From positions 792 through 64,791 of the forward strand of contig CAYWCU010000002.1 in the NCBI GenBank assembly GCA_964456855.1: 64,000 nt of DNA, written 5' to 3'. Under the pieces are notes generated by a model, which worked only from the letters and a program-made list of their open reading frames with translations, did no database searches and was not told the origin of the DNA. Source of the DNA: an uncultured Candidatus Saccharibacteria bacterium. Its GTDB lineage: Bacteria; Patescibacteriota; Minisyncoccia; UBA9983. This document shows positions 14,297-46,853 of the stretch, in pieces. Both the position numbers and the translations under genes were made by a program. Numbering within the stretch: the stretch's first letter is position 1; every line of letters starts with the position of its first letter.

Positions 14297-14370
14297 CCAC
14301 GCGTAATTCAGGACATCTTCGCGCGCCTGCCTTGCAATTCTATCAGCAAAATCGGGGTTTTGCAAAACTT
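14297..14370. repeat. direct repeat: duplicated 3'-end fragment of the GT4 gene at 15689-16849, left flank of the AbiE cassette
   Basis: cgcctgccttgcaattctatcagcaaaatcggggtt(t/c)tgcaaaac is near-identical at 14322-14368 and 15757-15803, with weaker similarity further upstream. The reverse strand encodes the remnant ...VLQNPDFADRIARQAREDV.... Confidence 0.75.
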
Positions 14371-15062
14371 TATTTTTCATTCTCTAAGCTGAGTTTCAAT
14401 AAAAATATTATGTCAGTTTTCAGGTTTTTCTTTACATCGTCTTTTTGTTTTTCATCCAAAAGTTCGCCCATACCGCTTAAAATATTTTTATTGCTAATCT
14501 GCTCTAATTTTGCGATACTTTTTTTCAGAAATTCACCAAACTCCATACCGGTCCTATCTTTAATTATTTTCTTATTCACGGGCCAATTATTTTTAAGGAA
14601 AAAGTGAACATCATAAATATCCCTGTTGGTTTTTCCTATCCTTTCATACATAGCCACCAATTTATGGGCGAACATATCCTCGCGAACCATCACAAGCATT
14701 GAAATCCCCAGGTATGATTTTAGTTCATACCGCGACCCGAATTTTCTGAGATTTATTTCAATTTTAATGTTTTGGCTTTTTTCTTTATGGGAAACCAGAA
14801 AAAATAAATTGTATCTCTTTTCTCTGGCGTCTTTTATTTTGCCATAGTTTTTGGCAATATCTTTGACTCTCAAAAAAACGATTTCTTTTTTTGATTCGTC
14901 CAGCAAATCAAAATCAAGATCAACTGAAAAACGGTCAAGACCATAAAATAAATAAGCGGCAGTCCCTCCTTTGAAACCCAAAAAGGGAGATATGTCCGTA
15001 TCGGAATAAATATCCTTAAGAATTCTCAGCAATATGTTTTTATGCTCAACTTTATTTAACAT
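14370..15062 (-). CDS. abiEii: AbiEii/AbiGii-family nucleotidyltransferase toxin (type IV toxin-antitoxin / abortive infection)
   Basis: FLGFKGGTAAYLFYGLDRFSVDLDFD is the DUF1814 AbiEii nucleotidyltransferase signature. Overlaps the upstream antitoxin gene by 11 nt. Confidence 0.8.
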   Translation of the reverse strand: MLNKVEHKNILLRILKDIYSDTDISPFLGFKGGTAAYLFYGLDRFSVDLDFDLLDESKKEIVFLRVKDIAKNYGKIKDAREKRYNLFFLVSHKEKSQNIKIEINLRKFGSRYELKSYLGISMLVMVREDMFAHKLVAMYERIGKTNRDIYDVHFFLKNNWPVNKKIIKDRTGMEFGEFLKKSIAKLEQISNKNILSGMGELLDEKQKDDVKKNLKTDIIFLLKLSLENEK

Positions 15063-15621
15063 AAAGAATTTCTTTTATCTTTTTCTCCATTCTTTTGTTT
15101 TTATAAATCGGCAAAATTTCAAAAACTTTGTCCCGATTAAGGGGAGATGGATTGTCAAAATAATAGTCTTTATTTATGTAAAGCGTGTCCAAAAAAGCTC
15201 TCTCTTTTGATGCTATAAAATATTCGCCGGAATTTTTCACCCCCACCTTGTTGGTCAGTATGGCGTCCTTTATTTTTCTAAAAGAATATTTTTGTCCATC
15301 GCATTTTATTTCGCGCGTCAAATAAGATGCGACAAAAATTTGGCTGTGGTGCTGAAAAGTAATCCCTGATTGCCCTAAGACGGTTTCAAAGCTCACATAA
15401 GCCGGAGTATAAATTTTTGTCGCAAGTTCAAATTTGTTATAATTCTTGTCTTTGGCGTAAAAACCACGGCGAATATGATGCAAATCTCCGTTTTTTACAT
15501 AATAGTTAATCCGCACCCTGGCGGCGGCGCCCGCATCTCTCCATAACAAAACAATATCCTTAAAAGAAAAGACTGTTTTGCTTGAACGCAATATTATTGA
15601 AAGATAATCACCTTTTTTCAT
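15052..15621 (-). CDS. abiEi: AbiEi-family antitoxin / transcriptional regulator
   Basis: About 190 aa with an N-terminal winged-helix and a C-terminal AbiEi-type domain. Positioned immediately upstream of and overlapping abiEii. Confidence 0.65.
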   Translation of the reverse strand: MKKGDYLSIILRSSKTVFSFKDIVLLWRDAGAAARVRINYYVKNGDLHHIRRGFYAKDKNYNKFELATKIYTPAYVSFETVLGQSGITFQHHSQIFVASYLTREIKCDGQKYSFRKIKDAILTNKVGVKNSGEYFIASKERAFLDTLYINKDYYFDNPSPLNRDKVFEILPIYKNKRMEKKIKEILYVK

Positions 15622-15688
15622 ATATGTCCCATACGTTAGCTTTAACCTTATATATAGTTTATATTATATATAAACTGCGGTCAACACT

Positions 15689-16849
15689 TTATCTGTTTAC
15701 GAATTCCAAAATCTCTTTTACTCTCTTTTCCCAAGTGTGATTTTGAACATCCTCGCACGCCTGCCTTGCAATTCTATCAGCAAAATCGGGGTTCTGCAAA
15801 ACGCGCGCGATACCCTCCGCGAGTTTCTCAGGGTTATCCGGCTCAACCAATATGGCGTTGTTTTCGTTTAAAATTTCCCTGATGGACGGCATGTCCGAGG
15901 CGACAATCGGCGTTCCGCTCGCCATATATTCAAACAGCTTCATCGGTGAAGTGTAATATTTTGAAATATCCTCTTTCGCGGTATTCGGCAACACGAGGAC
16001 ATCGGCGGCTTTCATCCATATAGGCATTTCTCCGTGAGGGCGATATCCGCCAATCTTTATATTTTCGCGATTCTTAACTCTTGATTTATAGTCATTTATA
16101 TCACTTTCCGTCCCCCCAATCAAATATATCAAGATATTCCCGTTCAAAAATTTTCCGGAATCCACCAAAGTGTCCACGCCTTTCCACGAATATAAATGCC
16201 CAGTGTAAAGAACTATTTTTTTATCCGCCGGCAAATTCAATCTCTCTCTGACTTTTAACTTTTCACTTTCAACTTTAAACTTATTGATGTCCACCCCGTC
16301 CGGCGCGACTAAAATCCTACTTGAATCAAGATTGTATTCTTTGATGTAAAAATCTTTGAGCCCTTGGGTAATGGATATAATGCCTCGGCTTTTTTTAAGA
16401 ACCCGCGCCACCAAAAAGTTTTTTCGAGCGGTGTGCGTTTCCCAAACGAGATTCTTTTTAAAAAAAGACAAATAAGAGAGTGGCAATTCGTCGCGGGAGT
16501 AAATTATATCCGCCTTTTGGAACAAAACATACCAAAAAGCGGAACAAGCGAATGAAAGCGACTGGATTCTAAAGCCGATTTTTCCGAATTTCACCAAATC
16601 CAGCGATGGAATTTTCGTTATCCGGAAATTTTTCTTCACTCCGTAATATTCAAACGGATCCTGTTTGATTTTATTGAACCGCCAAGGCAAAACAAGCTCC
16701 ACCTTTAACTTTTCACTTTCAACTTTTAACTCGGAAAACGCCTCGCACATCTTCATTATCTGAATCCCATGCGCCTTTTCCGTGGGTATTCTTACATTGG
16801 CTATGTAAATTATTTTCACCCCATTAGAAATATTTGTTGCTTTTTTCAT
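15689..16849 (-). CDS. glycosyltransferase family 4
   Basis: GT-B fold with C-domain KKIVLYTGHLYSWKGVD ... EMPIWMKAADVLVLPN ... FEYMASGTPIVASD. Contains two identical 23-nt AAAGTTGAAAGTGAAAAGTTAAA tracts, each encoding KVESEKLK. Confidence 0.8.
   Translation of the reverse strand: MKKATNISNGVKIIYIANVRIPTEKAHGIQIMKMCEAFSELKVESEKLKVELVLPWRFNKIKQDPFEYYGVKKNFRITKIPSLDLVKFGKIGFRIQSLSFACSAFWYVLFQKADIIYSRDELPLSYLSFFKKNLVWETHTARKNFLVARVLKKSRGIISITQGLKDFYIKEYNLDSSRILVAPDGVDINKFKVESEKLKVRERLNLPADKKIVLYTGHLYSWKGVDTLVDSGKFLNGNILIYLIGGTESDINDYKSRVKNRENIKIGGYRPHGEMPIWMKAADVLVLPNTAKEDISKYYTSPMKLFEYMASGTPIVASDMPSIREILNENNAILVEPDNPEKLAEGIARVLQNPDFADRIARQACEDVQNHTWEKRVKEILEFVNR
15729..15803. repeat. direct repeat: intact 3' end of GT4 15689-16849, right flank of the AbiE cassette
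   Basis: See 14297-14370. This copy sits inside the functional GT4 C-terminus (VLQNPDFADRIARQACEDVQNH). Confidence 0.75.
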
Positions 16850-16890
16850 AAACTAATTAAGTTATCTGCCCCGTAAATTTCTAACGGGGT

Positions 16891-17562: not shown

Positions 17563-17594
17563 AAATTTTTACCCCGCTAGAGATGGGATGAGTT

Positions 17595-18194: not shown

Positions 18195-18227
18195 ACATTA
18201 AAAAAATCATTTATTTTTCTAATTGCA

Positions 18228-18893: not shown

Positions 18894-19130
18894 TTGAATA
18901 TAATGGAACTGCCACTAAATACTAGGTTTGAGCACAGTCCGTTTTAATTTACTTTTACTTCACTGATTAGTCTTTTAATTAAATTTTTCAGACCGTGATT
19001 TTCGGCAACATACTCCCTCATGCCCTCATCTTTGCCGGATTTTGAAAGCGCGATTGTTTTTTTAAAAAGTTTTCTCATTTTTTCCCTAATGTTATTTTTC
19101 GGCGCGGGGGTCAAGTAATCCAAACCGCAA

Positions 19131-19183
19131 AAACCGGCGGGATGTCAGATAAGCCGAGCATCCCGCCGGTTTTTTCTTTTTCG
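19131..19183. terminator. rho-independent terminator (possibly bidirectional)
   Basis: Hairpin ccggcgggatg-N14-catcccgccgg followed by ttttttcttttt. Lies downstream of the minus-strand gene that ends at 19227. Confidence 0.6.
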
Positions 19184-19226
19184 CAAACTTCCGGACAAAA
19201 ATGCGTTCGGTAAAGCAACCTGTTCA

Positions 19227-19637
19227 TTAGGCTTCTTTTTCCGGACCTTTCTCTTCGTCTTTCTCTTCTCCTTCTTTGGAGTCTTCTTCTTCCGATGGCT
19301 TCTCCACCCCACTTATGATATTGGCAACCTCTTGGTAGATGTCTTTTTCCTCAATGCCGTTTCTCTGTAAAAACTTCTTCGCCTCTGGAGTAATTGCCGT
19401 CGTTCCGTCTTTGGCGACATAAAATGTGTGATGTTCGTCTTTGCCCTTCCCCGAGCAAAAGGCGACAAGATTAAAACCCCCTCCTTCCTTAGGTTTGATT
19501 ACAGAGATTGAATCTATCTTGCCCTCGTTTAACGGTTTTCTCGCCCCTTCCTCAATAGCTCCGGTAATTTCTTTTCCCTTATTCTTCAATGCCGCCAATT
19601 TGGCGAAAGGTCCCTCAAATACTTTTCCAAAATTCAT
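19227..19637 (-). CDS. hypothetical protein with an acidic C-terminal tail
   Basis: 136 aa ORF with a clean stop followed by a terminator. No recognisable domain. Confidence 0.4.
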   Translation of the reverse strand: MNFGKVFEGPFAKLAALKNKGKEITGAIEEGARKPLNEGKIDSISVIKPKEGGGFNLVAFCSGKGKDEHHTFYVAKDGTTAITPEAKKFLQRNGIEEKDIYQEVANIISGVEKPSEEEDSKEGEEKDEEKGPEKEA

Positions 19638-19745
19638 ATTTTTTATATTTTTTATATTTTACCGATAAATAACGACCTGTTAGGACTATAACACAAAAAA
19701 AGAAACTTATAAACACATTTTCCGGACATTTCTCTCACTCGCCCC

Positions 19746-19774
19746 AATCCACCGAAACCGGGTTTCGGTGGATT
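19746..19774. repeat. REP-like palindromic element, family A (copy 2)
   Basis: aatccaccgaaaccgggtttcggtggatt has the same core as 1114-1155. Confidence 0.6.
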
Positions 19775-19827: not shown

Positions 19828-20973
19828 TCATTGATTGAGGACGGAGATGATTTTTTTGATGAAGTTCTCCAAGCCATGGTTCTTAACAACAATCTCCCTC
19901 ATATCCGCAGATATTTTTTCTTTTTCATCGGGATTCAAGTCCATAATAAGTTTTATTTTTCCCGCCAGCGCCTCGGAGTCTTTTTTGGGATACATCAATT
20001 TTTCTTTGTATTCGCCAAGGACTTCCAACAGGGCTTCGTTGCAGGTTAGGATGGGCAGACCGCACGCCATTGCTTCAAGAATCGCCTTGTCCAAACTCCC
20101 TGTATGGCTCATATTAACAAACAAATCGGCTGATTGCAGGCGTGGCGCGATATCTTTGTTTGAGACGGCGCCAGCAAAATTTATAACGCCGGAAAGATTT
20201 TTTCGCGCCACCGTTTCTTTTAAGCCAGTAAGATACTTTTCTTGTTCGGGGAGCCCCGCGGCGCCGACAATATCAACTTTTATCTCCAGCCCGCCCTTTG
20301 TCAAAATTTCAACAGCGTTTATGAGCGTTTCGTAATCCTTCACGGGTGATATTCTTCCGATTGAAATAATTTTGAAAATGCCGTCATTTTTTCGGACTTC
20401 CGGACACGGTTTGAATTTTTCTGTATCAATCCCTTGCCCAACGACTTTTTTCTTTTTTGACGCAAGACGGAACCCGCTTTCAGTTGAGGTAAAAACGATG
20501 TCCGTCATTTTTTCCGCCAATTTCAAACTAGAGGGGACCGAACCGTGGGCATACCAAAGACCGATTTTCTTTCCCGTTAATTTCCAAAAGATTCCGCCCA
20601 AAATTACATAGATTTGATTCATATGGACGAAGACGGCGTCGTAGTTTTTTCGCTCGCGCCAGATGTATTTATAAAAATTAAAGATATACTTTAATTTTTT
20701 AGCAACTGACGGCTGAAAGCTGACGACTGAAAGCTGTTCTTTTCCAAGAGAAAGAACTTTAACCCCAGTACCAGAAAATTCCTTTGAATTTTCGCTACGG
20801 GGCTTCGCATTTCTGGCAGAGAAAAAATCATGTTCGCCCTCTTCCAAACATATGACGGTGATTTTTTCGCAATGCTTGGCGAACTCTTTAACCCATTGAT
20901 GGAAAAACCCCAAAACATCGTCGTTTGGGTCCATTTTTTGTGTGATTATCAATAACTTGACTTTTTTATTCAT
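19828..20973 (-). CDS. glycosyltransferase family 4
   Basis: Start trimmed to MNKKVKLLIITQ (ATG 20973). C-domain ISIGRISPVKDYETLINAV ... GSLDKAILEAMACGLPILT. Contains a CTGACGG/CTGAAAG heptamer tract at 20706-20736. Confidence 0.8.
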   Translation of the reverse strand: MNKKVKLLIITQKMDPNDDVLGFFHQWVKEFAKHCEKITVICLEEGEHDFFSARNAKPRSENSKEFSGTGVKVLSLGKEQLSVVSFQPSVAKKLKYIFNFYKYIWRERKNYDAVFVHMNQIYVILGGIFWKLTGKKIGLWYAHGSVPSSLKLAEKMTDIVFTSTESGFRLASKKKKVVGQGIDTEKFKPCPEVRKNDGIFKIISIGRISPVKDYETLINAVEILTKGGLEIKVDIVGAAGLPEQEKYLTGLKETVARKNLSGVINFAGAVSNKDIAPRLQSADLFVNMSHTGSLDKAILEAMACGLPILTCNEALLEVLGEYKEKLMYPKKDSEALAGKIKLIMDLNPDEKEKISADMREIVVKNHGLENFIKKIISVLNQ

Positions 20974-21033
20974 ATCTATATTATATAAGTATAAATTCCT
21001 TCGGGATCGCCCTGAAAAGGGCATAAATTGGAT

Positions 21034-21456
21034 CTAGGAAAAATCGGCAAGCTTTAGCAGTTTGCCGATTTTTCTTTTCATATTCTCAAAGTCATCCGCA
21101 GAAATCATTCCCAACTTTTTAACCAGTCTTTTTGAATCTATCAGTCTTATTTGAGATAAAATAGCGCTGTTTTTCTTGTTTTTGAGATTGAAATTAAAGT
21201 AAAAAACGCCTGCCTTTTGTTTAGTTGTTAGCGGAACGCATAAAAAAACACTGTTGTTGAATTTCCTCAGCACGACGACGGGTCTGGAAAAATTCTCATT
21301 TTTCCCTTCTTGCTCAAAGCCGATATTTCTCCCAAGGGACGCGTAGAAAATATCCCGTTCTTTGAAAAACACCCGCCGGTCGCGGTCATTCAAGCCCTTT
21401 TTTAATGCGTTCCATTCATCAAATAAATTCATGTTTTTATCATTAGTGTTTGTCAT
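21034..21456 (-). CDS. MazF/PemK-family toxin-like protein, second paralog
   Basis: LFDEWNALKKG ... FSRPVVVLRK ... CVPLTTK ... RLVKKLGMISADDFENM is collinear with the 3333-3722 paralog and with MazF. The start may instead be 21432. Confidence 0.55.
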   Translation of the reverse strand: MTNTNDKNMNLFDEWNALKKGLNDRDRRVFFKERDIFYASLGRNIGFEQEGKNENFSRPVVVLRKFNNSVFLCVPLTTKQKAGVFYFNFNLKNKKNSAILSQIRLIDSKRLVKKLGMISADDFENMKRKIGKLLKLADFS

Positions 21457-21480
21457 CGTTTTTGTCCACTTTTTGGGTAA

Positions 21481-21514
21481 TTATCAGTAACTTGACTTTT
21501 TTATTCATATCTAT
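21481..21514. repeat. duplicated 5' end (first 13 codons, MNKKVKLLIITQK) of the GT4 gene 19828-20973
   Basis: ttatcagtaacttgacttttttattcatatctat versus 20946-20979 ttatcaataacttgacttttttattcatatctat. On the reverse strand it reads MNKKVKLLIITQKVDKNDDKH* and runs into the MazF-like gene start. Confidence 0.75.
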
Positions 21515-21590
21515 GTATAATTATTGCAATCACCACGGGTCAGACATGGATAAGGTTTCGTCCTTATCTAGGACTCCCGGCAAAACATCG

Positions 21591-22106
21591 TCAACTTCGG
21601 TTGGCGATGTTTTGTTTACTTCCGAGCTTCTTCACAAAACCATCCAAAAACAAAAACATACTGTTGTCTTTTAAAACTATTTTTAATAACTTGGAATACC
21701 TTTTGCGAGATGGCACTACTAATTTTCCAAGCTTTTCTTTCTCATTTAAGTATTCCACCAAGCATGCAAAATCCCCGTCACCGCTTACAATTACAGCTTT
21801 ATCAAAATTCGGATACTCAATCATTGTGTGCAAAACAAGTTCAGCGTCAACATTGCCCTTTACGCCCTCGGGATGGTTTTGCACCACGGGTTTAAACACC
21901 ATAACAAAACCCTCTTCTTTTAACTTTTTATATAATTTATCATTCTTTTTTATATACCCGATGAAAAGAAAGGCTTTTTCAACTCCATATTTCTCTTTCA
22001 AATACACGCGAAAGCGGGCAAAATCCAATTTCCAGCCCAAAGACAGTATGCTTAAATTCAAATTCTGGCTGTCTATAAACGCGTAATTTATCTCTTTTTT
22101 GTTCAT
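21591..22106 (-). CDS. NYN-domain (LabA-like) protein
   Basis: AFIDSQNL ... DAELVLHTM ... AVIVSGDGDF match the NYN/LabA PIN-like nuclease domain. Confidence 0.7.
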   Translation of the reverse strand: MNKKEINYAFIDSQNLNLSILSLGWKLDFARFRVYLKEKYGVEKAFLFIGYIKKNDKLYKKLKEEGFVMVFKPVVQNHPEGVKGNVDAELVLHTMIEYPNFDKAVIVSGDGDFACLVEYLNEKEKLGKLVVPSRKRYSKLLKIVLKDNSMFLFLDGFVKKLGSKQNIANRS

Positions 22107-22261: not shown

Positions 22262-22993
22262 ATGGGCTTTCTCAGTCTGCTTTGGGGGAGTATTTTTATC
22301 ATCAGTATCGGTTTTATACGGGATGATTTTGTTTTTTCAATGGCATCTCTGCCGACATTCGGGGCGAGAATAGTCATTGAAATAATGCAGATTCATGTGA
22401 TGCTGCTCGCAACGGTAAAGGCCGACAGGAGCACATGGGGATTTCTGCGAATTATTACAATCCCAATACTTCTGACAACGGATATATTCTTGGACTACAA
22501 GATAACGCCACTTCAAATTACCGGAATAGGAATCATAATTTTAAGCCTCATTATTCTTTTTATCAATCACGGCATCAAGAAAAAAGGAATGTGGCTTGTT
22601 TTGTTCACCGCGGTAAACAGCGCCGCCGCAATCTCCCTTTATAAATACGACATTACTCATTTTAATTCCGTGGAGGCTGAGCAAAGCATTATTATACTCA
22701 TTCTGATGGTTTATCTTTTTATAATGGCCGTTTTTGTCGCCAAAGAAAACCCTATTTTATTCTTGAAGAAACCGTTTTTTATTCTTCAATCAATAGCGGG
22801 AGGATTGAGTCCGGCGTTCTTGAGTTTCGCTTATTTGTTCGCCCCCGCTTCAGTCATCACCACGGGCAAGCGTTCATTTTCAATTCTTTGGTCTATGCTT
22901 TCCGGCAATATGTATTTCCATGAAAAAAATTTTTTGATTAAATTTTCCTCATTCACTTTAATCGTCGTTGGGCTTATACTCCTTTTCTTTTAA
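22262..22993 (+). CDS. multi-pass integral membrane protein (possible DMT/EamA-like transporter)
   Basis: About 8 hydrophobic segments and no soluble domain. Confidence 0.45.
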   Translation: MGFLSLLWGSIFIISIGFIRDDFVFSMASLPTFGARIVIEIMQIHVMLLATVKADRSTWGFLRIITIPILLTTDIFLDYKITPLQITGIGIIILSLIILFINHGIKKKGMWLVLFTAVNSAAAISLYKYDITHFNSVEAEQSIIILILMVYLFIMAVFVAKENPILFLKKPFFILQSIAGGLSPAFLSFAYLFAPASVITTGKRSFSILWSMLSGNMYFHEKNFLIKFSSFTLIVVGLILLFF

Positions 22994-26068: not shown

Positions 26069-27168
26069 TTATCGGGAGCATTTTTCCCAGTCTTTTTTCG
26101 TTTGTTCCAGATATTCGTTTTTACCGAGAAAATTAAAGAGTGTGTTTTCGGCGCTCAGGGCGAGATTCGTCCGCAAAACCCTATCGCCAATCAACTTTAA
26201 AAGAGATTCCTCAAGTTTTTTCGCGTTCCCGACAGGAACGACAAGCCCGCTGTATCCGTCTTTTATTATTTCCCCCGCGATTCCGACATCCGTCATCACT
26301 ACAGGACAATTCGCCACCATCGCTTCAATGACGGTCCTTCCGTATCCCTCGTAATTTGAGGTGAGTAGAAAAAGGTCGGCGGTTTTATAGAAAGAAGCCA
26401 AATCGTCCGTCCAGTTTTCAAAAACGACGTTCGCTTTCAGTTTTCGGCTTTCAGCTTTCAGCTTGTTTTTTTCCGGACCGTCCCCGACTATAATCAGCCC
26501 GGTTTCGGGATATTGCTTGATGACGCCCTTCATCGCCTTAATCGCCATCCCGATGTTTTTCTCTTTCGTGAGCCGGCTCGCCATTAAAATAATGAAGTCA
26601 AATTGCGGATATTTTTCACGCAAGTTTGTTTTAACGGGCGCCTTTTTTATTTTTTCAACATCAACGAAAATAGGAAGAATGCTGACGGCTGACGGCTGAC
26701 GTCTTTCAAAGATTCTTTGATTCTTTGAGAAACAACACGAACTCAATCGGCGTATCTTAAGGAAAAATGGTAAACCAAAAAACGCAGAAAATTTTTCAGA
26801 GATTCTTTTCTGAACCAAGGGCTTGAAAAATCAGTGTGAATTTGCGCTTGAAATTTCGCCTTAAACTTGATTTTTAAAGCCAGTGCCAAAAGGTTCGTCA
26901 TCGCGTCTTGGGAAGTTACCAAAAATTTTCCGCTCTTCAAGAAATTTTTGGCGATTTTGTAACCTTGGACGAAATACAAAAAATTAAAACGGCTGTTCGT
27001 GGGATAAACCCAAGTGTTGCCAGAAATTCGCTCGGCTTTGAAACCCGGCTTCGTATAAACGATAATCCGCAATTCTTCGGTCAACTTTCCGTATTCAACC
27101 ATCCAGGACCGAACATCGGACCCTTCTTGAAAAATATTCTTATCCAAACTGAGCATTAAAACTTTCAT
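26069..27168 (-). pseudogene. GT4 glycosyltransferase, tandem copy 1, disrupted by an in-frame TGA and a frameshift and read as two ORFs
   Basis: N-frame ...SLRYAD-TGA-VRVVSQRIKESLKDV then a shift of frame at the (CTGACGG)x3 tract 26681-26701 into ...VSILPIFVDVEKI... FDFIILMASRLTKEKN ... EGYGRTVIEAM. Copy 2 carries the same lesions. Confidence 0.65.
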
Positions 27169-27200
27169 TGTTTTATTGGTATTATAATAAACATTATAAC
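26213..27200. repeat. ~1 kb tandem duplication, copy 1 (matches 28991-29965)
   Basis: The encoded ORFs are identical or near-identical between copies (for example the 78 aa and 141 aa ORFs). A few substitutions, such as KAERISGNTWVYPT versus EPKQISGNTWAYPT. Confidence 0.85.
26681..26701. repeat. heptanucleotide tandem repeat (CTGACGG)x3 inside the GT4 coding sequence, at the frameshift position
   Basis: gctgacggctgacggctgacg. The identical tract is at 29460-29480 in copy 2. Adding one 7-nt unit would restore the reading frame. Confidence 0.8.
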
Positions 27201-27392
27201 AGATTATCCGGCAAAAGCGCCTCGACGTGCGGCTATAAGTTTAATATGTATTATTGGATATGAAATCTATCATTGAAGAAGCAAAAAGTTTTCCGCATTT
27301 TATTTTAGATTTTCTTTAACTCTGATATGCTATACTCTAACAAAGGTCGGGTATCTATATTTATTATTTAAATTAAGAATTATTTAGTAAAT

Positions 27393-27959
27393 ATGCAAAA
27401 CATAATTACTCCCAAAAACTTGTTTACTTTGGCAATACTAGGATTTGTCGCCGTTTTCATTGTTCTGCCACTTACAACTCATGCATACTCGTACAGTGGG
27501 CAAAAGTGGTCAGGGACTACCGTATCAGTAGATGTTTCTGATCCATCATGGCCTAGCGCATGGATTTCTCCGCTCGCAAGTGCAATAAATGCGTGGAATG
27601 CAGCATCATCACCTTTCGCGTTTAATTCCGCCGCGACAGGTCATCAGTTCAAAACTTCAGCAAGTGGTGTAGGTAATCCTCTTGCTGTAACCGCTCGGAC
27701 TCCGTTGTCGGGTAACCCTATTACTGACATGGACACTACATTTAACACATCATATCCTTGGTCCACAAGCGGAGGCTCCAGTGCATACGACGTTCAAAAT
27801 GTCGCAACACATGAATTGGGGCATTGGTTGAGATTGCTTGATCTTTACGGTAGCGGGGACACAGAGGCAACAATGTACTACTCTGTATCTACTGGAGAAA
27901 TAAAGAAAAGATCGCTTGAAACCGATGATTTGGACGGCATTAATTATATTTACCCTTAA
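27393..27959 (+). CDS. secreted zinc metalloprotease, snapalysin/matrixin-like metzincin
   Basis: Signal peptide. HELGHWLRLLD (HExxHxxxxxD as in M7 snapalysin), a Met-turn ATMYY, and C-terminal DLDGINYIYP. GC content is higher than in flanking DNA. Confidence 0.6.
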   Translation: MQNIITPKNLFTLAILGFVAVFIVLPLTTHAYSYSGQKWSGTTVSVDVSDPSWPSAWISPLASAINAWNAASSPFAFNSAATGHQFKTSASGVGNPLAVTARTPLSGNPITDMDTTFNTSYPWSTSGGSSAYDVQNVATHELGHWLRLLDLYGSGDTEATMYYSVSTGEIKKRSLETDDLDGINYIYP

Positions 27960-27982
27960 GCCGGTAAAATTACTAAAAAAGT

Positions 27983-28588
27983 ATGAATAAACAAAATAAA
28001 TTCGTTATATTGCTCGTACTTGGAGTTCTCGCGGTCGGATTTGTAGGTGGCGGTATCGCTTATGTAAATCATCCCCAATCCGAGATTACAAAGACAACTA
28101 TTGATGCCTTATTGGCTTCCATCACTTCTGACGAATTGGTCAAGCAGTCAAATGGCGCAGTGCTCGGGACAGTGACAAATCTTAAGGTGGAGAAAATTCC
28201 TTCAAATATTCGACCAGGGAAAGAAGATATCGTGACTAACGCGACGATTAAAGTTGAAAAATATCTCTACAATCCCGAACAATTAACATCGGATGAACTT
28301 ATAGTACAGGTTGTCGGTGGTGTACTGAGAAGCGAAAGCATGAGCGCAGAAGAGTCTCCGTCATTCAAGATTGGTGATCGGGTTGTGGTATTCTTGTATA
28401 AAAAAGACAAGAGTCAGAGTGTATACACGGTCTATGGTTGGGCGCAGGGTAAGTATACCGTCGACAATAACGGCATTGTAGCTGTTGGAAACGAGTCCAT
28501 CTTTCTACGAGATGTTTTTGGGAAAGAACACATGACGCTTAATGAATTTGAAAACTCAGTTGCGTCGATCGTCTCGAAAATTCAGTAA
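27983..28588 (+). CDS. secreted or membrane-anchored hypothetical protein, co-oriented partner of the metalloprotease
   Basis: N-terminal TM/signal segment FVILLVLGVLAVGFVGGGIAYV, beta-rich, no known domain. Separated from the protease gene by 23 nt. Confidence 0.4.
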   Translation: MNKQNKFVILLVLGVLAVGFVGGGIAYVNHPQSEITKTTIDALLASITSDELVKQSNGAVLGTVTNLKVEKIPSNIRPGKEDIVTNATIKVEKYLYNPEQLTSDELIVQVVGGVLRSESMSAEESPSFKIGDRVVVFLYKKDKSQSVYTVYGWAQGKYTVDNNGIVAVGNESIFLRDVFGKEHMTLNEFENSVASIVSKIQ

Positions 28589-28825
28589 CCAACTTCAAAT
28601 AATAACACGCCTCAAGTAAAAATTATCCTAAAGGAAAGAGTCCAGGGGAATAAGCTTGATAAGGCGGTTATGCCAGTCTGGTAAAATTTCTTAAAGAACG
28701 CGGAAAGATAAGGATAATATTATCTCCTCACGCCAAAAATCTTTACTCAATTATTCTTAAAAGAACTGATGGTCCCGTTGCGAACTTAAAAGACCAAAAT
28801 CTATTTTGCAGACTAAAAAAGAAAA

Positions 28826-28868
28826 AGACCCCAGTGCGGACAAAATCGCACGGGGTCTTTTTCATGCA
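28826..28868. terminator. hairpin plus T-tract terminator (reads as a terminator on both strands)
   Basis: gaccccagtgcggacaaaatcgcacggggtc flanked by T/A runs. Downstream of GT4 copy 2 on the minus strand. Confidence 0.45.
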
Positions 28869-28955
28869 TGTTTTTTTCATATTTTCCAAGTATTCGTTTT
28901 TGCTGGGAAGATTAAGAAGAGTATTCTCAGCGCTCAACGCGAGGCTTGTCCGCAG

Positions 28956-29947
28956 TCACTTGTCGCCCGCCATCCTCAGGATAGCCTCTTCCAGTTTTTT
29001 CGCGTTCCCGACAGGAACGACAAGCCCGCTGTATCCGTCTTTTATTATTTCCCCCGCGATTCCGACATCCGTCATCACTACAGGACAATTCGCCACCATC
29101 GCTTCAATGACGGTCCTTCCGTATCCCTCGTAATTTGAGGTGAGTAGAAAAAGGTCGGCGGTTTTATAGAAAGAAGCCAAATCGTCCGTCCAGTTTTCAA
29201 AAACGACGTTCGCTTTCAGTTTTCGGCTTTCAGCTTTCAGCTTGTTTTTTTCCGGACCGTCCCCGACTATAATCAGCCCGGTTTCGGGATATTGCTTGAT
29301 GACGCCCTTCATCGCCTTAATCGCCATCCCGATGTTTTTCTCTTTCGTGAGCCGGCTCGCCATTAAAATAATGAAGTCAAATTGCGGATATTTTTCACGC
29401 AAGTTTGTTTTAACGGGCGCCTTTTTTATTTTTTCAACATCAACGAAAATAGGAAGAATGCTGACGGCTGACGGCTGACGTCTTTCAAAGATTCTTTGAT
29501 TCTTTGAGAAACAACACGAACTCAATCGGCGTATCTTAAGGAAAAATGGTAAACCAAAAAACGCAGAAAATTTTTCAGAGATTCTTTTCTGAACCAAGGG
29601 CCTGAAAAATCCGTGTGAATCTGCGCTTGAAATCCCGCCTTAAACTTGATTTTTAAAGCCAGCGCCAAAAGGTTCGTCATCGCGTCTTGGGAAGTTACCA
29701 GAAACCTTTCACCCTTCAAAAGTTTTTTGGCGATTTTATAGGCCCGCCCGAAATATAAAAAATTAAAACGGCTGTTTGTGGGATAAGCCCAGGTGTTGCC
29801 GGAAATTTGCTTAGGCTCAAAACCCGGCTTTGTATACACGATAATCCTCAATTCATCGGTCAGTTTGCCATATTCAACCATCCAAGACCGAACATCGGAC
29901 CCTTCTTGAAAAATATTCTTATCCAAACTGAGCATTAAAACTTTCAT
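28956..29947 (-). pseudogene. GT4 glycosyltransferase, tandem copy 2, with the same TGA and frameshift plus a degraded C-terminus
   Basis: Same lesions as copy 1. The C-terminal end diverges (EEAILRMAGDK*), with a frame-shifted remnant of the ...SAENTL.NL..KNEYLE... tail in ORF 28743-28937. Confidence 0.65.
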
Positions 29948-29965
29948 TTGTGTTATTGGTATTAT
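28991..29965. repeat. ~1 kb tandem duplication, copy 2
   Basis: See 26213-27200. Confidence 0.85.
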
Positions 29966-30084
29966 AGCAAAATTTTGCCTGAAAATACCCGTTGCACTAA
30001 ACTAGTTAAACAAAAACCGCCATATGTCTGTACACATTACAAAATCACATTGAACTTAAGCCATAAATCCTGTATAATGTTGGT

Positions 30085-30966
30085 GTGTGGAACGAACGAC
30101 AAAAATTTATTCCCATGAGTAGAAAGAAAGAAAAAACAGACCCCACAAAAGATTCCCCGAGGGAAGGGCTGGAGATGTATTTTTCTCCTGATATTTCCGC
30201 AAAATTCGCGGAGCTGGAGCAGAATGAAAAAAATTACAGAGTGTCCGCGATACTGGATAATATTATAGTCAAAGAATTAGAGAACCTTAAAGAACCGGTA
30301 TTCGCGGCTGAATTGGGCGGTGGAGCCCATCTGGACAGATATCATAATTTCTTCAATAAAATATTGAAAGAACCGGGGGGGCGCATTGATTGGGTGGACA
30401 TATCCCCTTGTATGTTGGATTTGGCGAAAAAATACCTTGCAGACAAGAAATACGCGAACAGGAAGGGAGTGATAAAATTCATAAAAAACGACATTTCAGA
30501 ATACTTGCGCGAAATGAAGGATGAAACACTTGATCTCTCCATAATGAAATACACAATTGATCACATAAAAAATCTTGAGGGGTTTTTTGAACTTTTGTCA
30601 AAAAAGTTAAAAAAAGGAGGAAAACTGATATCCACGGCGGATAACCTCAATCCGGAACTCAAGAGTTATTCAACAAACGCTCGGTTTCTTTATAATGGTA
30701 AGGAATTTCCGGACGATGAAACGAGGACGCTTAAGGACGGCGACAGCTTCACTATTAAATTTTTCAAAGTTTCCGGCGAGCCGGAATCAGGGTATTTGAA
30801 AGGGGCGGAAACGGTAAAATACTATCATTCTCCGGAAAAAATCTCCGCACTGGCAAAAAAATTCAACTTTGACATCTTTTTGGGAGATTGGAGTAAAATC
30901 TCCGATGACGATGGGCGAGTGGGGGAAAATATGGACCAAGATATATTGATATTGACAAAAAAATAG
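30085..30966 (+). CDS. SAM-dependent methyltransferase-like protein
   Basis: AAELGGGAHLDRY (motif I-like), RIDWVDISPCML, LKKGGKLIS. The start may be MSRKKEK at 30115. Confidence 0.45.
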   Translation: MWNERQKFIPMSRKKEKTDPTKDSPREGLEMYFSPDISAKFAELEQNEKNYRVSAILDNIIVKELENLKEPVFAAELGGGAHLDRYHNFFNKILKEPGGRIDWVDISPCMLDLAKKYLADKKYANRKGVIKFIKNDISEYLREMKDETLDLSIMKYTIDHIKNLEGFFELLSKKLKKGGKLISTADNLNPELKSYSTNARFLYNGKEFPDDETRTLKDGDSFTIKFFKVSGEPESGYLKGAETVKYYHSPEKISALAKKFNFDIFLGDWSKISDDDGRVGENMDQDILILTKK

Positions 30967-31067
30967 AATCCGCGTTTCGTTTTGGTCTTTATCTCACCAC
31001 GTCCGACTCCCATCTCCGCAACTCAAACCGATTTTGAATATTTTTTAAATTCGCAATTTTTTTAATT

Positions 31068-31520
31068 TCAAATCTCTCCCCTTTCTACTATTAAAATATC
31101 CAGATTATGAAAATCTTCGGCCGTTTCCTTCAGGATTTTTCTCACCTTTTCTTTGTCCAATCCGACGATGCCGGATCCCAAAAGCGGAACAGCGACAGAG
31201 TGAAGTCCTTCTTTCCCACAGAACTCAAGCGCTTTTCTCCAGGCATTTTCCAATCTTGAGTAGGAAATTATCTCGCGAGTATTCCACACTATCGTAGGAA
31301 TATGAATCACTTTTTTGGCGGGCAGATTTCCAGCCGATGTAACGGCAAATTCTCCCAAAGGACAAAAACCGATTGCCCGACTTTCCTTTTTCAACTCATC
31401 TCCCGCGGTGCGGGCGATAGCCAACGCCACTCCGCCACCATGCTCCAATTCGGCATTGGCGGCGTTCACAATCACGTCAGTGTTCATTTTTACAATATTC
31501 CCTTTTACAAACTTAACCAT
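31068..31520 (-). CDS. macro domain protein (O-acetyl-ADP-ribose deacetylase / YmdB-like)
   Basis: GNIVKMNTDVIVNAANAELEHGGGVALAI ... SVAVPLLGSGIVGL. Confidence 0.8.
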   Translation of the reverse strand: MVKFVKGNIVKMNTDVIVNAANAELEHGGGVALAIARTAGDELKKESRAIGFCPLGEFAVTSAGNLPAKKVIHIPTIVWNTREIISYSRLENAWRKALEFCGKEGLHSVAVPLLGSGIVGLDKEKVRKILKETAEDFHNLDILIVERGEI

Positions 31521-31549
31521 TTTAAAATTTGGGTACCCTTTTGGGGCTT

Positions 31550-32719
31550 TTATTCGTCCGAAGTCGGTGTTTTTATTTTTTTAAAAATCGCGACCAAATC
31601 CTCCAACATTCTTTCTTTGCCGAACTCTCCGACTTTTTGCCCGGCGTTTCGGATGATTTCATTTCTCAATTTCAGGTCGTCGCGCAATTCAAATATCGCC
31701 TTTTTCAGTTCCTCTTTATCGCCATACTCAACCAGAAACCCGTTTTCTTTATCTGTTATCATTTCCGGATTTCCTCCGATATCCGTGGTTATGACGGGAA
31801 TACCGAGAGCCATCGCTTCAAGCAATTGATGCGAAAAGCCCTCATATCCCGTGTTGAGAACAAAAACATCCCCGGCGCGAAGCAGGAGAAGCAGTTCCTC
31901 TTGGGGCAATTGACCGAGCAAAAAAACATTCTTTCGCAAACCGTAATTAGCAATGACCGTTTCCAACGCTTCCCGGTCTGGACCGGAACCGATTATAAAA
32001 AATTTCGCGGATGGAATTTCCTTTAAGATTTTCGGCATAATTCCAATGAGCGTTTTGAAACCTTTCCATGGGACAAGCCGCCCGGCGGAAATAATCAAAA
32101 AGTCATCAGCTTTCAGCTGTCGGTTGTCAGCTATTTTTTTCCGCGCGTCCTCTTTGCTTACTTCTAGTTTCGGCGCGTTGAAAGCATTATGGATAACTTT
32201 TATTTTATCCCCGTTTATTGCCCAGCTCGCGACTATTTTTTTCAAATATTCACTCGGCGTAATGATTTTCTCCGCTTGCCGAGCAACCCACCTTTCAATT
32301 TTTCTCCTCAATTCAGTGAGCCAATCAAACCTCCTTTCTTGAAACTCCTCCAAGCTGATAAAGCGGTTTCTGTTTGAAAATTCATGCGAAGATCCGCTTT
32401 GCATATATTGTTCCCAAGCGTAATCGCCAACAATCTTCAAGATAAATTTCTTCCGCAGGAGCTTCGCGGCAATCGCTGCCGGCAAACCAACGCTCACAGG
32501 ATCCTGGGCGAACACAATATCCGCTTCGCGCGCGCGATTCAAAACCTTAAAAAAATAAGAGAAATGCCGAATGATTTTCGGCAGTCGCCTTACTTTACCG
32601 AAACTCAAAATTTCAACCTCCATCCCCTTTTTCGGCAATTCGTCGAAAAGCAGTTTTGAATATGTCGCCGGTCCCCCTATGTCGGGTGGATAAATGCCGG
32701 TTGCGATTAAAATCCTCAT
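31550..32719 (-). CDS. glycosyltransferase family 4
   Basis: MRILIATGIYPPDIGGPATY... N-domain and FLIISAGRLVPWKGFKTLIG ... EGFSHQLLEAMALGIPVITTDIGG C-domain. Heptamer tract at 32105-32130. Confidence 0.85.
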   Translation of the reverse strand: MRILIATGIYPPDIGGPATYSKLLFDELPKKGMEVEILSFGKVRRLPKIIRHFSYFFKVLNRAREADIVFAQDPVSVGLPAAIAAKLLRKKFILKIVGDYAWEQYMQSGSSHEFSNRNRFISLEEFQERRFDWLTELRRKIERWVARQAEKIITPSEYLKKIVASWAINGDKIKVIHNAFNAPKLEVSKEDARKKIADNRQLKADDFLIISAGRLVPWKGFKTLIGIMPKILKEIPSAKFFIIGSGPDREALETVIANYGLRKNVFLLGQLPQEELLLLLRAGDVFVLNTGYEGFSHQLLEAMALGIPVITTDIGGNPEMITDKENGFLVEYGDKEELKKAIFELRDDLKLRNEIIRNAGQKVGEFGKERMLEDLVAIFKKIKTPTSDE

Positions 32720-32765
32720 ATATTTTGATGATAATACAATTAAAGGCTATTATCAATTGATAATT
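32612..32765. repeat. ~150 bp direct repeat, copy 1: 5' end plus promoter region of GT4 31550-32719
   Basis: ttcaacctccatcccctttttcggcaattcgtcgaaaagcagttttgaatatgtcgccggtccccctatgtcgggtggataaatgccggttgcgattaaaatcctcata... recurs at 33978-34128. Confidence 0.85.
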
Positions 32766-32976
32766 TTTACTTGACTATGGCAATAGATTGATATAGTTTT
32801 GAATCATGAAGTTTTTTCATAAAAATATTTCAATCAATTGGTGGAGCTCATTTCTTTCTGGAGAAGTGAGTTTTGCGCGCTTTTGATAATTTTTTATCTG
32901 AATTTAAGTTTGTAAAACCCGCTTCTCAAGGCGGGCGTTTTATTAAAACGCAAAGTTCTTTAAAAATAAGGAGGAA

Positions 32977-33762
32977 ATGGTTATGTCAAACGCAATTGAT
33001 TGGAGGCGCATTGAGAAAGCCCTGCTACAGCAAGCGCGCGCTATTGGCGCTGAAAAAAGCAGGGTTAAAGAAATTATTTTGCAATTATCTCAATTGGTTG
33101 AAGTCTGCGGAGAATTTTCGAGAAACAGAAGGATGCTTGTTCGGTTGGGTAGAATTTTTCTGGAGCAAAATCCGATTATATTTGCTCCGTGTTGCCCGGA
33201 CTACACCTGTGAAAAAGGACATTATGATTTTCAGGGGCTAAATGAAGGAGTTTCCTTGGCAACAAGGAAACAAATTAAATTTTTAGAAAAAATAGTGGGG
33301 ATTATTCCACAAGCAAAACCGGTTCTTCTTATCTCGGATCTGGATTCAGATAATGAATCCATTCTTAAAGCCGTGAGGAAAACCAAACAAGAATTTGGTT
33401 TTTGCGTAAAAAGCTCATTAGAAGCCACTCGCGGAGTAATTGAAAATCTTGGGTGGGAGGCAGAGCTTATGACTGTAAAATTTCCTTCTTGGCGCTTCGC
33501 GGAGAAGGAAATTATTGAATGGCTACGTCAAAGTGAGAAGTTTAAAGAGCGTTTGGTTTTAGAGAGCGTGAGGGGCTCGAGACTAACATTAAACCGCGCG
33601 GAAAGATTAAACCGCGCCGAAAGAAATGCTTCTCAATTTGTTGTTCTTGGGAGATTGGCTACCAAGAACAACGCGATTATTTGCGACACAACCACCGGGA
33701 TAATGTCCTGGTATCTGCAAACAGAGGCTGCCATCCTTTGTAATCCAATTAATATTTATTAA
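32977..33762 (+). CDS. hypothetical protein (Cys-containing CCPDYTC motif, no recognised domain)
   Basis: 261 aa ORF with a strong RBS (aaggagg) 8 nt upstream. Bracketed by the 150 bp direct repeats. Confidence 0.45.
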   Translation: MVMSNAIDWRRIEKALLQQARAIGAEKSRVKEIILQLSQLVEVCGEFSRNRRMLVRLGRIFLEQNPIIFAPCCPDYTCEKGHYDFQGLNEGVSLATRKQIKFLEKIVGIIPQAKPVLLISDLDSDNESILKAVRKTKQEFGFCVKSSLEATRGVIENLGWEAELMTVKFPSWRFAEKEIIEWLRQSEKFKERLVLESVRGSRLTLNRAERLNRAERNASQFVVLGRLATKNNAIICDTTTGIMSWYLQTEAAILCNPINIY

Positions 33763-33929
33763 AGATGAATAAAAGCTCGGAATAATAAAATATTCCGAGC
33801 TTATTTTTTATGGCAAAAACTAAAAAATATTAAACTTTTTTGATTGCTTCCATAAGCTCGGAAAACTGCTCCTGTGCAAAATGCCCTCTGTTTTCAAAAA
33901 AAGGAGAAATCTCTCAAACTAAAGTTTTC

Positions 33930-34128
33930 ATTCTGAATATTTTGCGTTTTGTTTTGATGACATGGTTGAAGCAATCACTTCAACCTCCATCCCCTTTTTC
34001 GGCAATTCGTCGAAAAGCAGTTTTGAATATGTCGCCGGTCCCCCTATGTCGGGTGGATAAATGCCGGTTGCGATTAAAATCCTCATATGTTGTAATAATA
34101 ATACAGTTAAAGGTCTTTATCAATTAGT
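33930..34128 (-). pseudogene. duplicated 5' fragment of the GT4 gene (remnant MRILIATGIYPPDIGGPATYSKLLFDELPKKGMEVEV...), direct repeat copy 2
   Basis: Reverse strand from ATG 34087 reproduces the first ~40 codons of GT4 31550-32719, then diverges and stops. Confidence 0.7.
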
Positions 34129-46851: not shown

Positions 46852-46853
46852 TT

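Follow-up and report, generated by a model that had tools for sequence, protein, structure and literature searches.

How do genes come to lie between two copies of the end of one and the same neighbouring gene? The question is raised by the glycan locus in a stretch of 64,000 nucleotides (64 kb) from an uncultured Candidatus Saccharibacteria bacterium (contig CAYWCU010000002.1), the whole of which is called the window here. A preliminary description had pointed to three cargo insertions in this locus, each flanked by a direct duplication of the end of the neighbouring glycosyltransferase (GT) gene, and had offered two explanations, namely site-specific integration that regenerates the gene end and a cassette exchange specific to the locus. 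Based on the comparisons described below, we hold with moderate confidence that the GT remnants were left as scars when genes were acquired by recombination in a compact, conserved GT array of Patescibacteria (the candidate phyla radiation, CPR), of the type known as homology-facilitated illegitimate recombination (HFIR), with no dedicated recombinase or attachment site.

Gene insertions between duplicated gene ends

All three repeat pairs were recovered by a BLAST search of the whole window against itself, by a repeat scan and by local alignments, with small corrections of their coordinates. The pair of case 1 (14289-14368 and 15723-15802) is 80 nt long and 87.5% identical (self-BLAST E = 2e-21), and at the protein level the likeness runs on to both stop codons. 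That of case 2 (20918-20992 and 21453-21524; about 75 nt, 89% identity, one 3-nt gap, E = 2e-15) takes in the first 19 codons of the gene, rather than the 13 originally given, together with about 19 nt upstream. The case 3 pair (32612-32758 and 33979-34125; 147 nt, 94.6%, E = 2e-60) consists of 36 codons, corrected from about 40, and 39 nt upstream. The copies agree without a mismatch over at most 36 nt in case 1, 27 nt in case 2 and 110 nt (32612-32721) in case 3, where the run takes in all 108 coding nucleotides and the differences between the copies are confined to the upstream 39 nt. In each pair, as already noticed, one copy belongs to an intact gene of the GT4 type (on the minus strand in all three cases), and the other is a short remnant, or stub, within an open reading frame (ORF) of its own (14240-14380, 21443-21508 and 33928-34086, respectively).

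Two further cases were found: a nearly full-length GT4 pair (case 4; 26093-27195 and 28872-29974, 1103 nt, 92% identity overall) and a remnant seen at the protein level (case 5; 18944-19078). The case 4 pair contains a block of 609 nt at 100% identity (26214-26822 = 28993-29601), on either side of which the copies are only about 70% and about 88% identical. The self-comparison of the window gave nine significant direct-repeat pairs, and four of them are those of cases 1 to 4. At all five duplicated GT ends the cargo lies exactly between the copies, with no plain tandem pair among them. The length of the inserts is 0.4-1.7 kb, and they have a lower GC content than the flanking GT genes. Searches of the 34 larger ORFs between 9.2 and 37.6 kb against Pfam, NCBIfam and PADLOC bore out the gene identities that had been proposed (GT4, AbiEi/AbiEii and a MazF-like, or PemK/MazF-like, protein); the cargo consists only of AbiEi/AbiEii, PemK-like and matrixin-like proteins and hypothetical proteins, with no mobility genes. 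The repeats of the first four cases (75-1103 nt, all above 30 bp) are indeed too long for the target-site duplications of transposons.

Such structures could also be produced by stringing together strain variants of GT ends during assembly. Nine contigs of other assemblies (designated by L and a number) that are 99.3-100% identical to the window cross the junctions (L001, L002, L094-L099 and L104): the junction between the GT gene of case 1 and AbiEi is present in L002 and L096, that from AbiEii through the stub to GT13092 in L094 and L095, the whole of case 2 in L001, cargo 4 with both GT edges in L097, L098 and L099, and cargo 3 with its two repeats in L104. Since independent contigs contain the junctions, the structures are not an artefact of this assembly. 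It is true that all of the short-read contigs stop within repeats, with a break inside every one of them, and that the 609-nt block could be a collapsed consensus, given the four sites within it at which L097 and L098 depart from the window. However, where the repeats have diverged, each copy can be assigned to its flank, and an origin of the pattern in assembly is extremely improbable.

Insertion into a conserved glycosyltransferase array

The best matches of the GT genes of the window are all in metagenome-assembled genomes of Patescibacteria, at no more than 64% amino acid identity. When the window proteins were mapped onto related loci, a common array was seen in nine relatives (L030, L034, L055, L059, L060, L084, L087, L090 and L108), with the order GT35699 (in divergent orientation), GT34455, GT31550, one GT26, (a methyltransferase and a radical-SAM gene), GT19828 and GT15689. 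Adjacent genes of the array are separated by -6 to about 60 nt in these relatives. None of the nine has a window cargo gene inside the array or a tandem copy of an array GT, each GT being present once. In the window, extra genes are found at all four consecutive array junctions from GT34455 to GT19828 and also downstream of GT19828 and GT15689, and five of these insertions carry a stub or second copy of the neighbouring GT. As the array of the relatives is compact and free of cargo, the cargo genes are insertions, as the preliminary description had held.

The related genomes with single, adjacent GT copies are distant from the window (35-88% identity), the closest relative found being L108 (77-88% at the nucleotide level). 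No strain-level empty site or cargo-free variant was found among the near-identical contigs (identical or 99.3-99.6%), all of which carry the cargo. Exact-protein look-ups for GT31550, for a macro-domain gene of the array region and for the cargo 3 protein (from its first start codon) returned no record.

Five genes that also interrupt the array in the window have no stub beside them (31068-31520, 30085-30966, 25421-25960, 21591-22106 and 22262-22993). They encode a macro-domain protein, a methyltransferase, an isochorismatase-family hydrolase, an NYN-domain protein and a strongly hydrophobic hypothetical protein of 243 aa with no family match. The macro-domain protein resembles DarG (PADLOC, 2.8e-12), and a DarT partner was not seen.

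The AbiE cassette and its truncated glycosyltransferase

The intact gene of case 1, GT15689 or GT_A (15689-16849, minus strand; Pfam Glycos_transf_1, E = 4e-25), has orthologues in 80 Patescibacteria loci, and its 3' part (15723-15802) is repeat D5. It is followed by the AbiE cassette (14370-15686, minus strand), which consists of a -35 box, an operator-like palindrome and the overlapping ORFs of AbiEi (15052-15621; PADLOC 4.9e-59) and AbiEii (14370-15062; PADLOC 2.7e-70, Pfam PF08843 9e-19). With the AbiEi antitoxin gene adjacent to that of the AbiEii nucleotidyltransferase toxin, cargo 1 is an AbiE type IV toxin-antitoxin system. The unit starts with the -35 box 4 nt past the stop codon of GT_A and ends with the stop codon of AbiEii, and its GC content is 0.336, versus 0.41 in the flanking GT genes.

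The remnant of case 1 (delta-GT_B; 14240-14380, minus strand) is a 46-codon ORF in which MKNKV stands in frame with the last 41 codons of a GT15689-type gene, and its ATG overlaps the AbiEii stop codon (ATGAAAAATAA). In L004 exactly the same overlap of AbiEii stop and GT start is followed by a full-length GT, with no stub, and the 3' end of this GT and its downstream flank match the stub and flank of the window (14317-14230) at 78%. The stub of case 1 is therefore an internally deleted second full copy, and its ancestor had the order GT - AbiE - GT; at the deletion junction a microhomology of only two nucleotides, GT, is possible. AbiEii is 90% identical in amino acid sequence between the window and L004, and the neighbouring genes are 43-58% identical. 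The contig of L004 starts within AbiEii and thus holds only the last 313 nt of the AbiE unit (87% identity). The 1.3-kb unit also exists with identical limits, at 78-80% nucleotide identity, in other contexts in L100 and L101. In these two loci, the ones in which both flanks are visible, the GT15689 3' end was not found beside AbiE, and a nucleotide search showed no flanking repeats around it.

Further differences were noted around GT15689. Its orthologue in L004 (311-656 compared with window 16816-16470) is a mosaic, with 84% identity over 346 nt at the 5' end, no nucleotide match in the middle and 73% at the 3' end, while the 5' part of the window gene is 66-70% identical to other relatives; the mosaic suggests recombination within GT genes between lineages. 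Downstream of the stub, inverted repeats of 31 nt (84% complementary; 12155-12185 and 14224-14254) bracket a sulfotransferase-like gene (12209-13108) and a GT gene (13092-14207), and one arm overlaps a flank rich in heptanucleotide repeats just past the stub. The block 10884-14229 is absent in L003 and L004, where the GT15689 orthologue directly precedes a homologue of 10018-10881.

The MazF-like gene and the remnants of GT19828

Cases 2 and 5 concern the two ends of the intact GT4 gene GT19828 (19828-20973, minus strand; recognized by Pfam), whose orthologue in L108 is 72% identical in amino acid sequence. Its 5' end and upstream region (20918-20992) constitute repeat D11. The cargo of case 2 is a PemK/MazF-like gene (21034-21456, minus strand; Pfam PemK_toxin 1.2e-12). 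No antitoxin ORF lies upstream of it in the window, and the homologue in L108 directly follows a GT gene; with a toxin domain and no evident cognate antitoxin gene, cargo 2 does not qualify as a MazEF type II system. The start of its longest ORF falls inside the end of the stub ORF. Homologues are shorter and begin with MNLFDEW, a sequence that in the window ORF (MTNTNDKN-MNLFDEW) starts only at codon 9, and nucleotide homology of this region with L108 starts at 21445.

The remnant of case 2 (21443-21524, minus strand) comprises about 16 nt of upstream sequence and the first 19 codons of a GT19828-type gene, and its ORF reads MNKKVKLLIITQKVDKNDDKH up to the stop codon. The L108 orthologue has the stub peptide (...QKVDKNDD) unaltered at its N-terminus; the intact gene of the window, in contrast, has ...QKMDPNDD. 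In L108 a single-copy GT26, without cargo 4, is followed by the MazF-like gene, the same 60-nt spacer and the GT19828 orthologue, and no stub exists; the MazF-like homologue (8001-8408, 92% amino acid identity) lies between two full GT genes, its start overlapping the stop codon of GT26. The MazF-like gene, the spacer and the first 145 nt or so of the GT are 87.9% identical between the window and L108, compared with 77-81% in the flanks. Since both this block and the AbiE-GT block are closer between lineages than their flanks are, the cargo and the adjacent GT end behave like a co-inherited or co-transferred unit.

Cargo 5 is a hypothetical gene of 136 aa (19227-19637, minus strand) with no Pfam or NCBIfam match, followed by a terminator-like hairpin (19113-19190); in L084 and L108 it is missing from the place between the GT19828 orthologue and the gene that follows. 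Downstream of it lies the putative remnant (18944-19078, minus strand), a 44-codon ORF with a GT19828-like C-terminus (MREYVAENHGLKNLIKRLIS versus MREIVVKNHGLENFIKKIIS, 13 of 20 residues; tblastn E = 1e-5 within the window). The nucleotide similarity of the two was not significant (score 26 versus a shuffle maximum of 29), and case 5, apparently recognizable as protein only, is the weakest of the five.

The nearly full-length pair

In case 4 the cargo (27196-28871, plus strand) carries the genes of a matrixin-like metalloprotease (27393-27959; Pfam Peptidase_M10 3.9e-10) and a hypothetical protein (27983-28588), and it is absent beside the single GT26 orthologue in L030, L055, L060, L084, L087 and L108. 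In the window a TGA codon and the loss of 7 nt interrupt copy 1 of the GT4 gene (26069-27195, minus strand), and copy 2 (28872-29974, minus strand), which lacks the last 22 nt before the stop codon and has a premature stop, shows the same TGA and 7-nt deletion. Copy 1 is intact in L097 and L098. These two contigs differ from the window at exactly four sites, all inside the 609-nt block: at 26682-26704 they have (GCTGACG)x4 where the window has three units, a change that toggles the frame of the GT at 26069-27168, and at 26743 they have TGC (Cys) instead of TGA, so that this GT is one intact ORF there. The 609-nt block thus points to either gene conversion from the defective copy or a collapsed assembly consensus.

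The orphan gene beside GT31550

The intact gene of case 3 (GT31550, 31550-32719; Pfam 7e-44) and its 39 upstream nucleotides occupy 31550-32758 on the minus strand, of which 32612-32758 is repeat D2. Cargo 3 (32759-33978, plus strand) contains an orphan gene (32977-33762) that has an upstream region of its own, as well as a bidirectional terminator-like hairpin; its GC content is 0.376, versus 0.444. The gene had no match in Pfam, NCBIfam or PADLOC, and only two homologues were found (50-54% amino acid identity), one of which was inspected and does not adjoin a GT. The remnant (33928-34125, minus strand) is made up of the 39 nt upstream and the first 36 codons of GT31550, followed by 16 unrelated codons. 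No further GT similarity was detected in the 216 nt between the stub and cargo 3 (score 12 versus 11.4 +/- 1.4 in shuffles), and a 75-aa ORF beyond the stub (34146-34373) had no Pfam, NCBIfam or PADLOC match. Contigs L102 and L103 end inside the stub, which forms both ends of L104 and L105 (about 100 nt); the ends of the latter two fit either a repeat-bounded unit or a 1367-bp circle together with an empty site.

These contigs bear on an explanation in which a circle carrying the cargo and a fragment of a donor GT end enters by a Campbell-type single crossover in the resident GT end, and RecA-mediated looping out restores the GT. Such a circle would likewise leave two alleles around the cargo with one gene intact, and the identical 100 nt or so at both ends of L104 and L105 suit it, as does the 110-nt identical run of case 3, which could be the crossover region. 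An invade-amplify-release cycle of this kind has been proposed for restriction-modification genes with long repeats (PMC2853133). Moreover, the repeats fall on the best-conserved nucleotide stretches of GT 5' ends. For window 16818-16736 there are matches in more than 40 loci, at 75-89% in most of them and at 93% in one shorter match, and for 32713-32631 the matches are at 78-82%. On the other hand, crossover would be inefficient within 75-147 nt at 88-95% identity, the identical runs being as short as 36 nt in case 1 and 27 nt in case 2. The case 1 stub, which keeps both the start and the end of the full gene, indicates deletion of a full copy rather than a short fragment, the homology fades on one side instead of being sharp on both, and the circle junction was not observed. 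We therefore consider the circle a fairly unlikely source of the repeats.

The same arrangement in other loci

A nucleotide self-comparison of 91 related loci (1.43 Mb) yielded 22 repeat pairs, six of which were confirmed by annotation; the accompanying protein-level search covered 1.53 Mb (those loci, the window and a few more). In L054 (10010-14031) a GT gene is followed by three modification genes and then by a 362-nt stub of the GT 3' end at 76% identity, and in L058 (2380-4768) by a hypothetical gene and a 235-nt stub at 91%. A methyltransferase pair surrounds a B12-radical-SAM gene in L025 (7707-10725). Genes of DUF4143/AAA_14 ATPases lie between repeats of 174 nt and 193 nt, at 91-97% identity, in two places in L003 (140-2019 and 10891-12669), where one repeat is the 5' end of the gene for a Wzt transporter (ABC ATPase). 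In L101 (4361-5794) a 91-aa GIY-YIG gene, which neighbours AbiE, is situated between a 23-codon stub of a GT 5' end and the full GT, and the stub exists only next to this gene. Thus, as other glycan loci of Patescibacteria show it with different cargo and different flanks, the pattern is specific neither to the window locus nor to GT genes nor to toxin-antitoxin cargo, and the cassette exchange specific to the locus that had been suggested is unneeded. The window is, all the same, unusually dense, with five cases in 20 kb.

Divergence between the two copies

The three duplicated ends had been regarded as direct duplications of the GT gene end. If so, a stub would have decayed neutrally since its origin, and the ratio of nonsynonymous to synonymous differences (pN/pS) between the copies would be about 0.58 by our own estimate, which takes a nonsynonymous to synonymous rate ratio (omega) of about 0.15 for the intact copy and of 1 for the stub. 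The ratios found are 0.24 in case 1 (26 codons), 0.12 in case 2 (19 codons) and 0.16 in the 5' part of the case 4 pair (115 codons; 26 synonymous and 16 nonsynonymous differences, with a synonymous divergence, dS, of about 0.5); in the 3' part of case 4 the synonymous sites are saturated. Across the cases tested, dS is about 0.4-0.9. The synonymous excess over neutral stub decay is significant when cases 1 and 2 are combined (P = 0.012), in case 4 (4e-5) and in the pooled data (1e-8). In case 3, a uniform spread of the differences would place all of them in the upstream 39 nt with a probability of about 2e-5 (our arithmetic). Ratios of 0.19-0.31 were obtained in L054, L058, L025 and L101; the copies in L003, identical or almost so, provide no signal of this kind. 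Because the differences are mostly synonymous (pN/pS 0.12-0.24 in the window), the copies are alleles that diverged while both worked, one of them having been truncated only recently, and the idea of a direct duplication of the GT end is not sustained.

A classical insertion with long target duplication, caused for instance by a staggered break or a replication-fork event and followed by divergence of the copies, would account for direct repeats of more than 30 bp around small inserts without mobility genes, and for repeats that span a start or stop codon while the gene stays intact, as described for restriction-modification genes. It also agrees with the complete identity of the 108 coding nucleotides in case 3. 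The L003 repeats are similar in this respect, one coding part being identical (47 codons) and the other having six differing sites (pN/pS 0.74). However, the synonymous excess in cases 1, 2 and 4 rejects neutral decay, the case 5 stub can be aligned only as protein, the case 2 stub has the allele of the L108 type, and the case 1 stub derives from a full-length second copy, all of which render target duplication quite unlikely, except perhaps for case 3 and L003.

Functional divergence might instead mean that the GT genes were old tandem paralogues, with cargo that landed later in the spacer and truncation of one paralogue. The two nearly full copies around cargo 4, the case 1 stub as a deleted full copy, and the low pN/pS of two functional genes would all fit. 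Nevertheless, we regard this history as unlikely: tandem copies occur in none of the nine relatives, and all five duplicated ends enclose cargo with no plain tandem pair left over. In addition, the 609-nt conversion tract implies fast homogenization, under which a long coexistence at a dS of about 0.5 in the flanking parts is not to be expected, and recombination between long repeats would delete the cargo. Finally, the greater closeness of the AbiE-GT and MazF-GT blocks than of their flanks across lineages bespeaks transfer.

Search for dedicated machinery

Between 9.2 and 37.6 kb, the screen of the 34 larger ORFs revealed no integrase, recombinase or transposase, and the only transposase-like ORF seen in the rest of the window is one of the IS200 type (Y1, 1339-2082). 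Nor did the 16 junction sequences share any stretch of 8 nt or more across at least three cases, so that the motif that might have been expected at the cargo boundaries was not found, and the repeat scan showed no terminal inverted repeats at the cargo ends. The attributes of DNA transposons and insertion sequences (target-site duplications of 2-15 bp, terminal inverted repeats and a transposase) are consequently lacking here.

Site-specific integration, the first of the two explanations originally offered, would require an element that brings a replacement GT end and is mobilized by an integrase encoded elsewhere, in the manner of phages at tRNA genes. In cases 1 and 3 the homology is sharp at the cargo junction and fades away from it, like attL and attR sites, and one copy regenerates the gene end. 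The evidence against it is as follows: neither a tyrosine nor a serine recombinase was detected among the ORFs screened (most of the window), the junctions have no common core motif, AbiE occurs in L100 and L101 without the GT15689 end, each cargo comprises no more than two genes, and no two cases have the same repeat. This explanation is highly improbable.

The IS200-like ORF (weak Pfam match, 8e-6) is itself situated between direct repeats of 59 nt with 86% identity (1288-1346 and 2093-2151), each of which is palindromic.

A model for the origin of the repeats

In the model that we favour, the cargo would enter on DNA of a diverged relative, together with that relative's copy of the neighbouring GT; uptake of free DNA is the presumed entry route, and transfer is taken to run from the relative into the window lineage. 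One end of the incoming DNA would recombine homologously within the conserved array, and the other would join illegitimately inside or at the edge of the resident GT copy, which has just become redundant. In a gene-dense operon with almost no spacers, the redundant GT copy may be the only harmless place for such a sloppy join. A join inside the gene would give a short stub at once (cases 2 and 3, perhaps 5), and one at the gene edge would give two full copies around the cargo (case 4 today, and an L004-like ancestor of case 1). The second copy could then erode by internal deletion, as in case 1, and be homogenized in part by gene conversion, as in the 609-nt block of case 4. The linkage of cargo to a donor copy of the anchor gene that HFIR predicts is found in the AbiE-GT block common to the window and L004, and in the block of MazF-like gene, spacer and GT 5' end common to the window and L108.

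Several observations weigh against recombinational acquisition. No donor and recipient pair was found at the strain level, so that no junction can be demonstrated to be illegitimate or microhomologous. A true duplication could also lead to divergence of the allelic type if the intact copy was then replaced by another allele, and so could tandem paralogues that stayed functional for a long time; in addition, the codon samples of cases 1 and 2 (26 and 19) are small. Case 3, with 108 identical coding nucleotides, gives no signal from nonsynonymous and synonymous substitution (dN/dS). Furthermore, the AbiE cassette ends within a few nucleotides of its stop codon in four contexts, which is neater than would be expected of illegitimate joins made at random; such tidy ends could, however, reflect selection for the smallest unit that functions.

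A bolder proposal is that the GT ends serve as homology "addresses" of a cassette system without a recombinase, with the stubs perhaps acting as silent gene-conversion donors that switch the GT genes on and off. Recombination between the copies would loop out a circle of cargo and one repeat, restore the intact GT, and allow the circle to re-enter any genome with the same GT end; addictive toxin-antitoxin cargo would stabilize structures that are otherwise unstable. A hint in this direction comes from case 4, in which the GT that is intact in L097 and L098 has the stop codon and 7-nt deletion of the defective copy in the window. We consider a system of this kind doubtful, much as we do the old tandem paralogues.

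Comparison with known systems

HFIR was reportedly studied by de Vries and Wackernagel in 2002, by Prudhomme and co-workers in the same year and by Meier and Wackernagel in 2003. As defined in one source (PMC3240628), it combines a homologous anchor on one side with an illegitimate join on the other side during natural transformation. The window resembles it in that no mobility genes are needed and a donor copy of the anchor gene comes with the cargo. It differs in that HFIR was demonstrated experimentally in Acinetobacter, Streptococcus and Pseudomonas, while here it is inferred from sequence, and in that several events would have taken place within one 20-kb operon.

Insertion of restriction-modification genes with long target duplication was reportedly described by Nobusato and co-workers in 2000. 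The cases summarized in a later survey have repeats of 46-423 bp, often across a start or stop codon, no mobility genes, and hosts that are mostly competent species (Furuta et al. 2010, PMC2853133). In the tabulated cases from Helicobacter pylori and Burkholderia, the two repeats are closer to each other than to the empty site, which marks a true duplication (PMC2853133). Common to these cases and the window are small inserts (<20 kb) without mobility genes, direct repeats of tens to hundreds of base pairs, and cargo of a selfish or defence type. However, the window copies are diverged alleles with mostly synonymous differences and not copies of one target, two of the window cases are or derive from full-length second copies, and the cargo consists of toxin-antitoxin and orphan genes, not restriction-modification genes.

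In loci of type VI secretion systems (T6SS), Rhs proteins and contact-dependent inhibition (CDI), effector-immunity modules are displaced by others and leave behind orphan immunity genes or 3' regions, for which HFIR was proposed (Kirchberger et al. 2017, PMC5361080). There, as in the window, a conserved gene anchors the incoming modules, the older version survives as an orphan fragment and no integrase is present. The displaced toxin tips and immunity genes of those loci may stay useful, whereas the pieces in the window are 5' as well as 3' ends of housekeeping-like GT genes, with cargo unrelated to the anchor. Phages and other elements integrated in the 3' end of a gene also regenerate that end, place a second copy beyond the insert and have one sharp border, but in the window no integrase was detected among the ORFs screened, the junctions lack a common core, 5' ends are involved too, the inserts consist of one or two genes, and the AbiE cassette is found elsewhere without the gene end. 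In short, the pattern is most like long target duplication in appearance and closest to HFIR in mechanism, and is not a new kind of mobile element.

Other features of the window

Tandem tracts of a heptanucleotide are strongly enriched in these glycan loci of the CPR: in 1.53 Mb, tracts of at least four units numbered 22 for period 7, as against 0-3 for periods 4, 5, 8, 10, 11, 13 and 14. In the window heptamer tracts were found at 36415-36442, 37953-37980, 26682-26704, 20703-20742, 26412-26461, 32088-32137, 16251-16281 and 16701-16731. There are 20 in related loci, e.g., at 592, 751, 1042 and 4210 of L055, and the repeated unit varies from one genome to another. In lepA the tract, which encodes YQLSAISYQL, takes the place of a variable loop with no change in its length. 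Such tracts may serve phase variation, as contingency tracts do, or may stem from a particular mutational process. They were considered as markers of the cargo junctions and rejected, being located inside genes and in the identical block of case 4 and not at repeat borders, apart from one just past the case 1 stub.

Outside the GT array, an island of low GC content (0.29-0.31; region 43603-48430) lies directly after tRNA-Gly(CCC) (43603-43676), with genes for a helix-turn-helix (HTH) protein, a TdeIII-type restriction endonuclease, HNH, KilA-N and Schlafen/AlbA_2 proteins and a methyltransferase fragment of 92 aa. The island is enclosed by inverted repeats (43687-43799 and 48308-48430; about 113-123 nt, 77% identical). 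Two tandem paralogues (60109-60651 and 60692-61243; region 60080-61137) are about 80% identical over 480 nt, and a 41-nt direct repeat with 95% identity is located at 54690-54730 and 54981-55021.

Implications for Patescibacteria

Patescibacteria have tiny, gene-dense genomes, and the way in which they acquire accessory and defence genes is poorly understood. The locus described here records five separate acquisitions in 20 kb, each with a scar that identifies the second allele. This suggests that ordinary recombination with the DNA of diverged relatives, anchored in conserved genes for glycosylation of the cell surface, is enough to import toxin-antitoxin and orphan genes without breaking the operon. 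If the process is general, gene-end stubs could serve as a genomic marker of recombinational gene flow in uncultivated bacteria, and could help to explain the build-up of defence genes in glycan loci.

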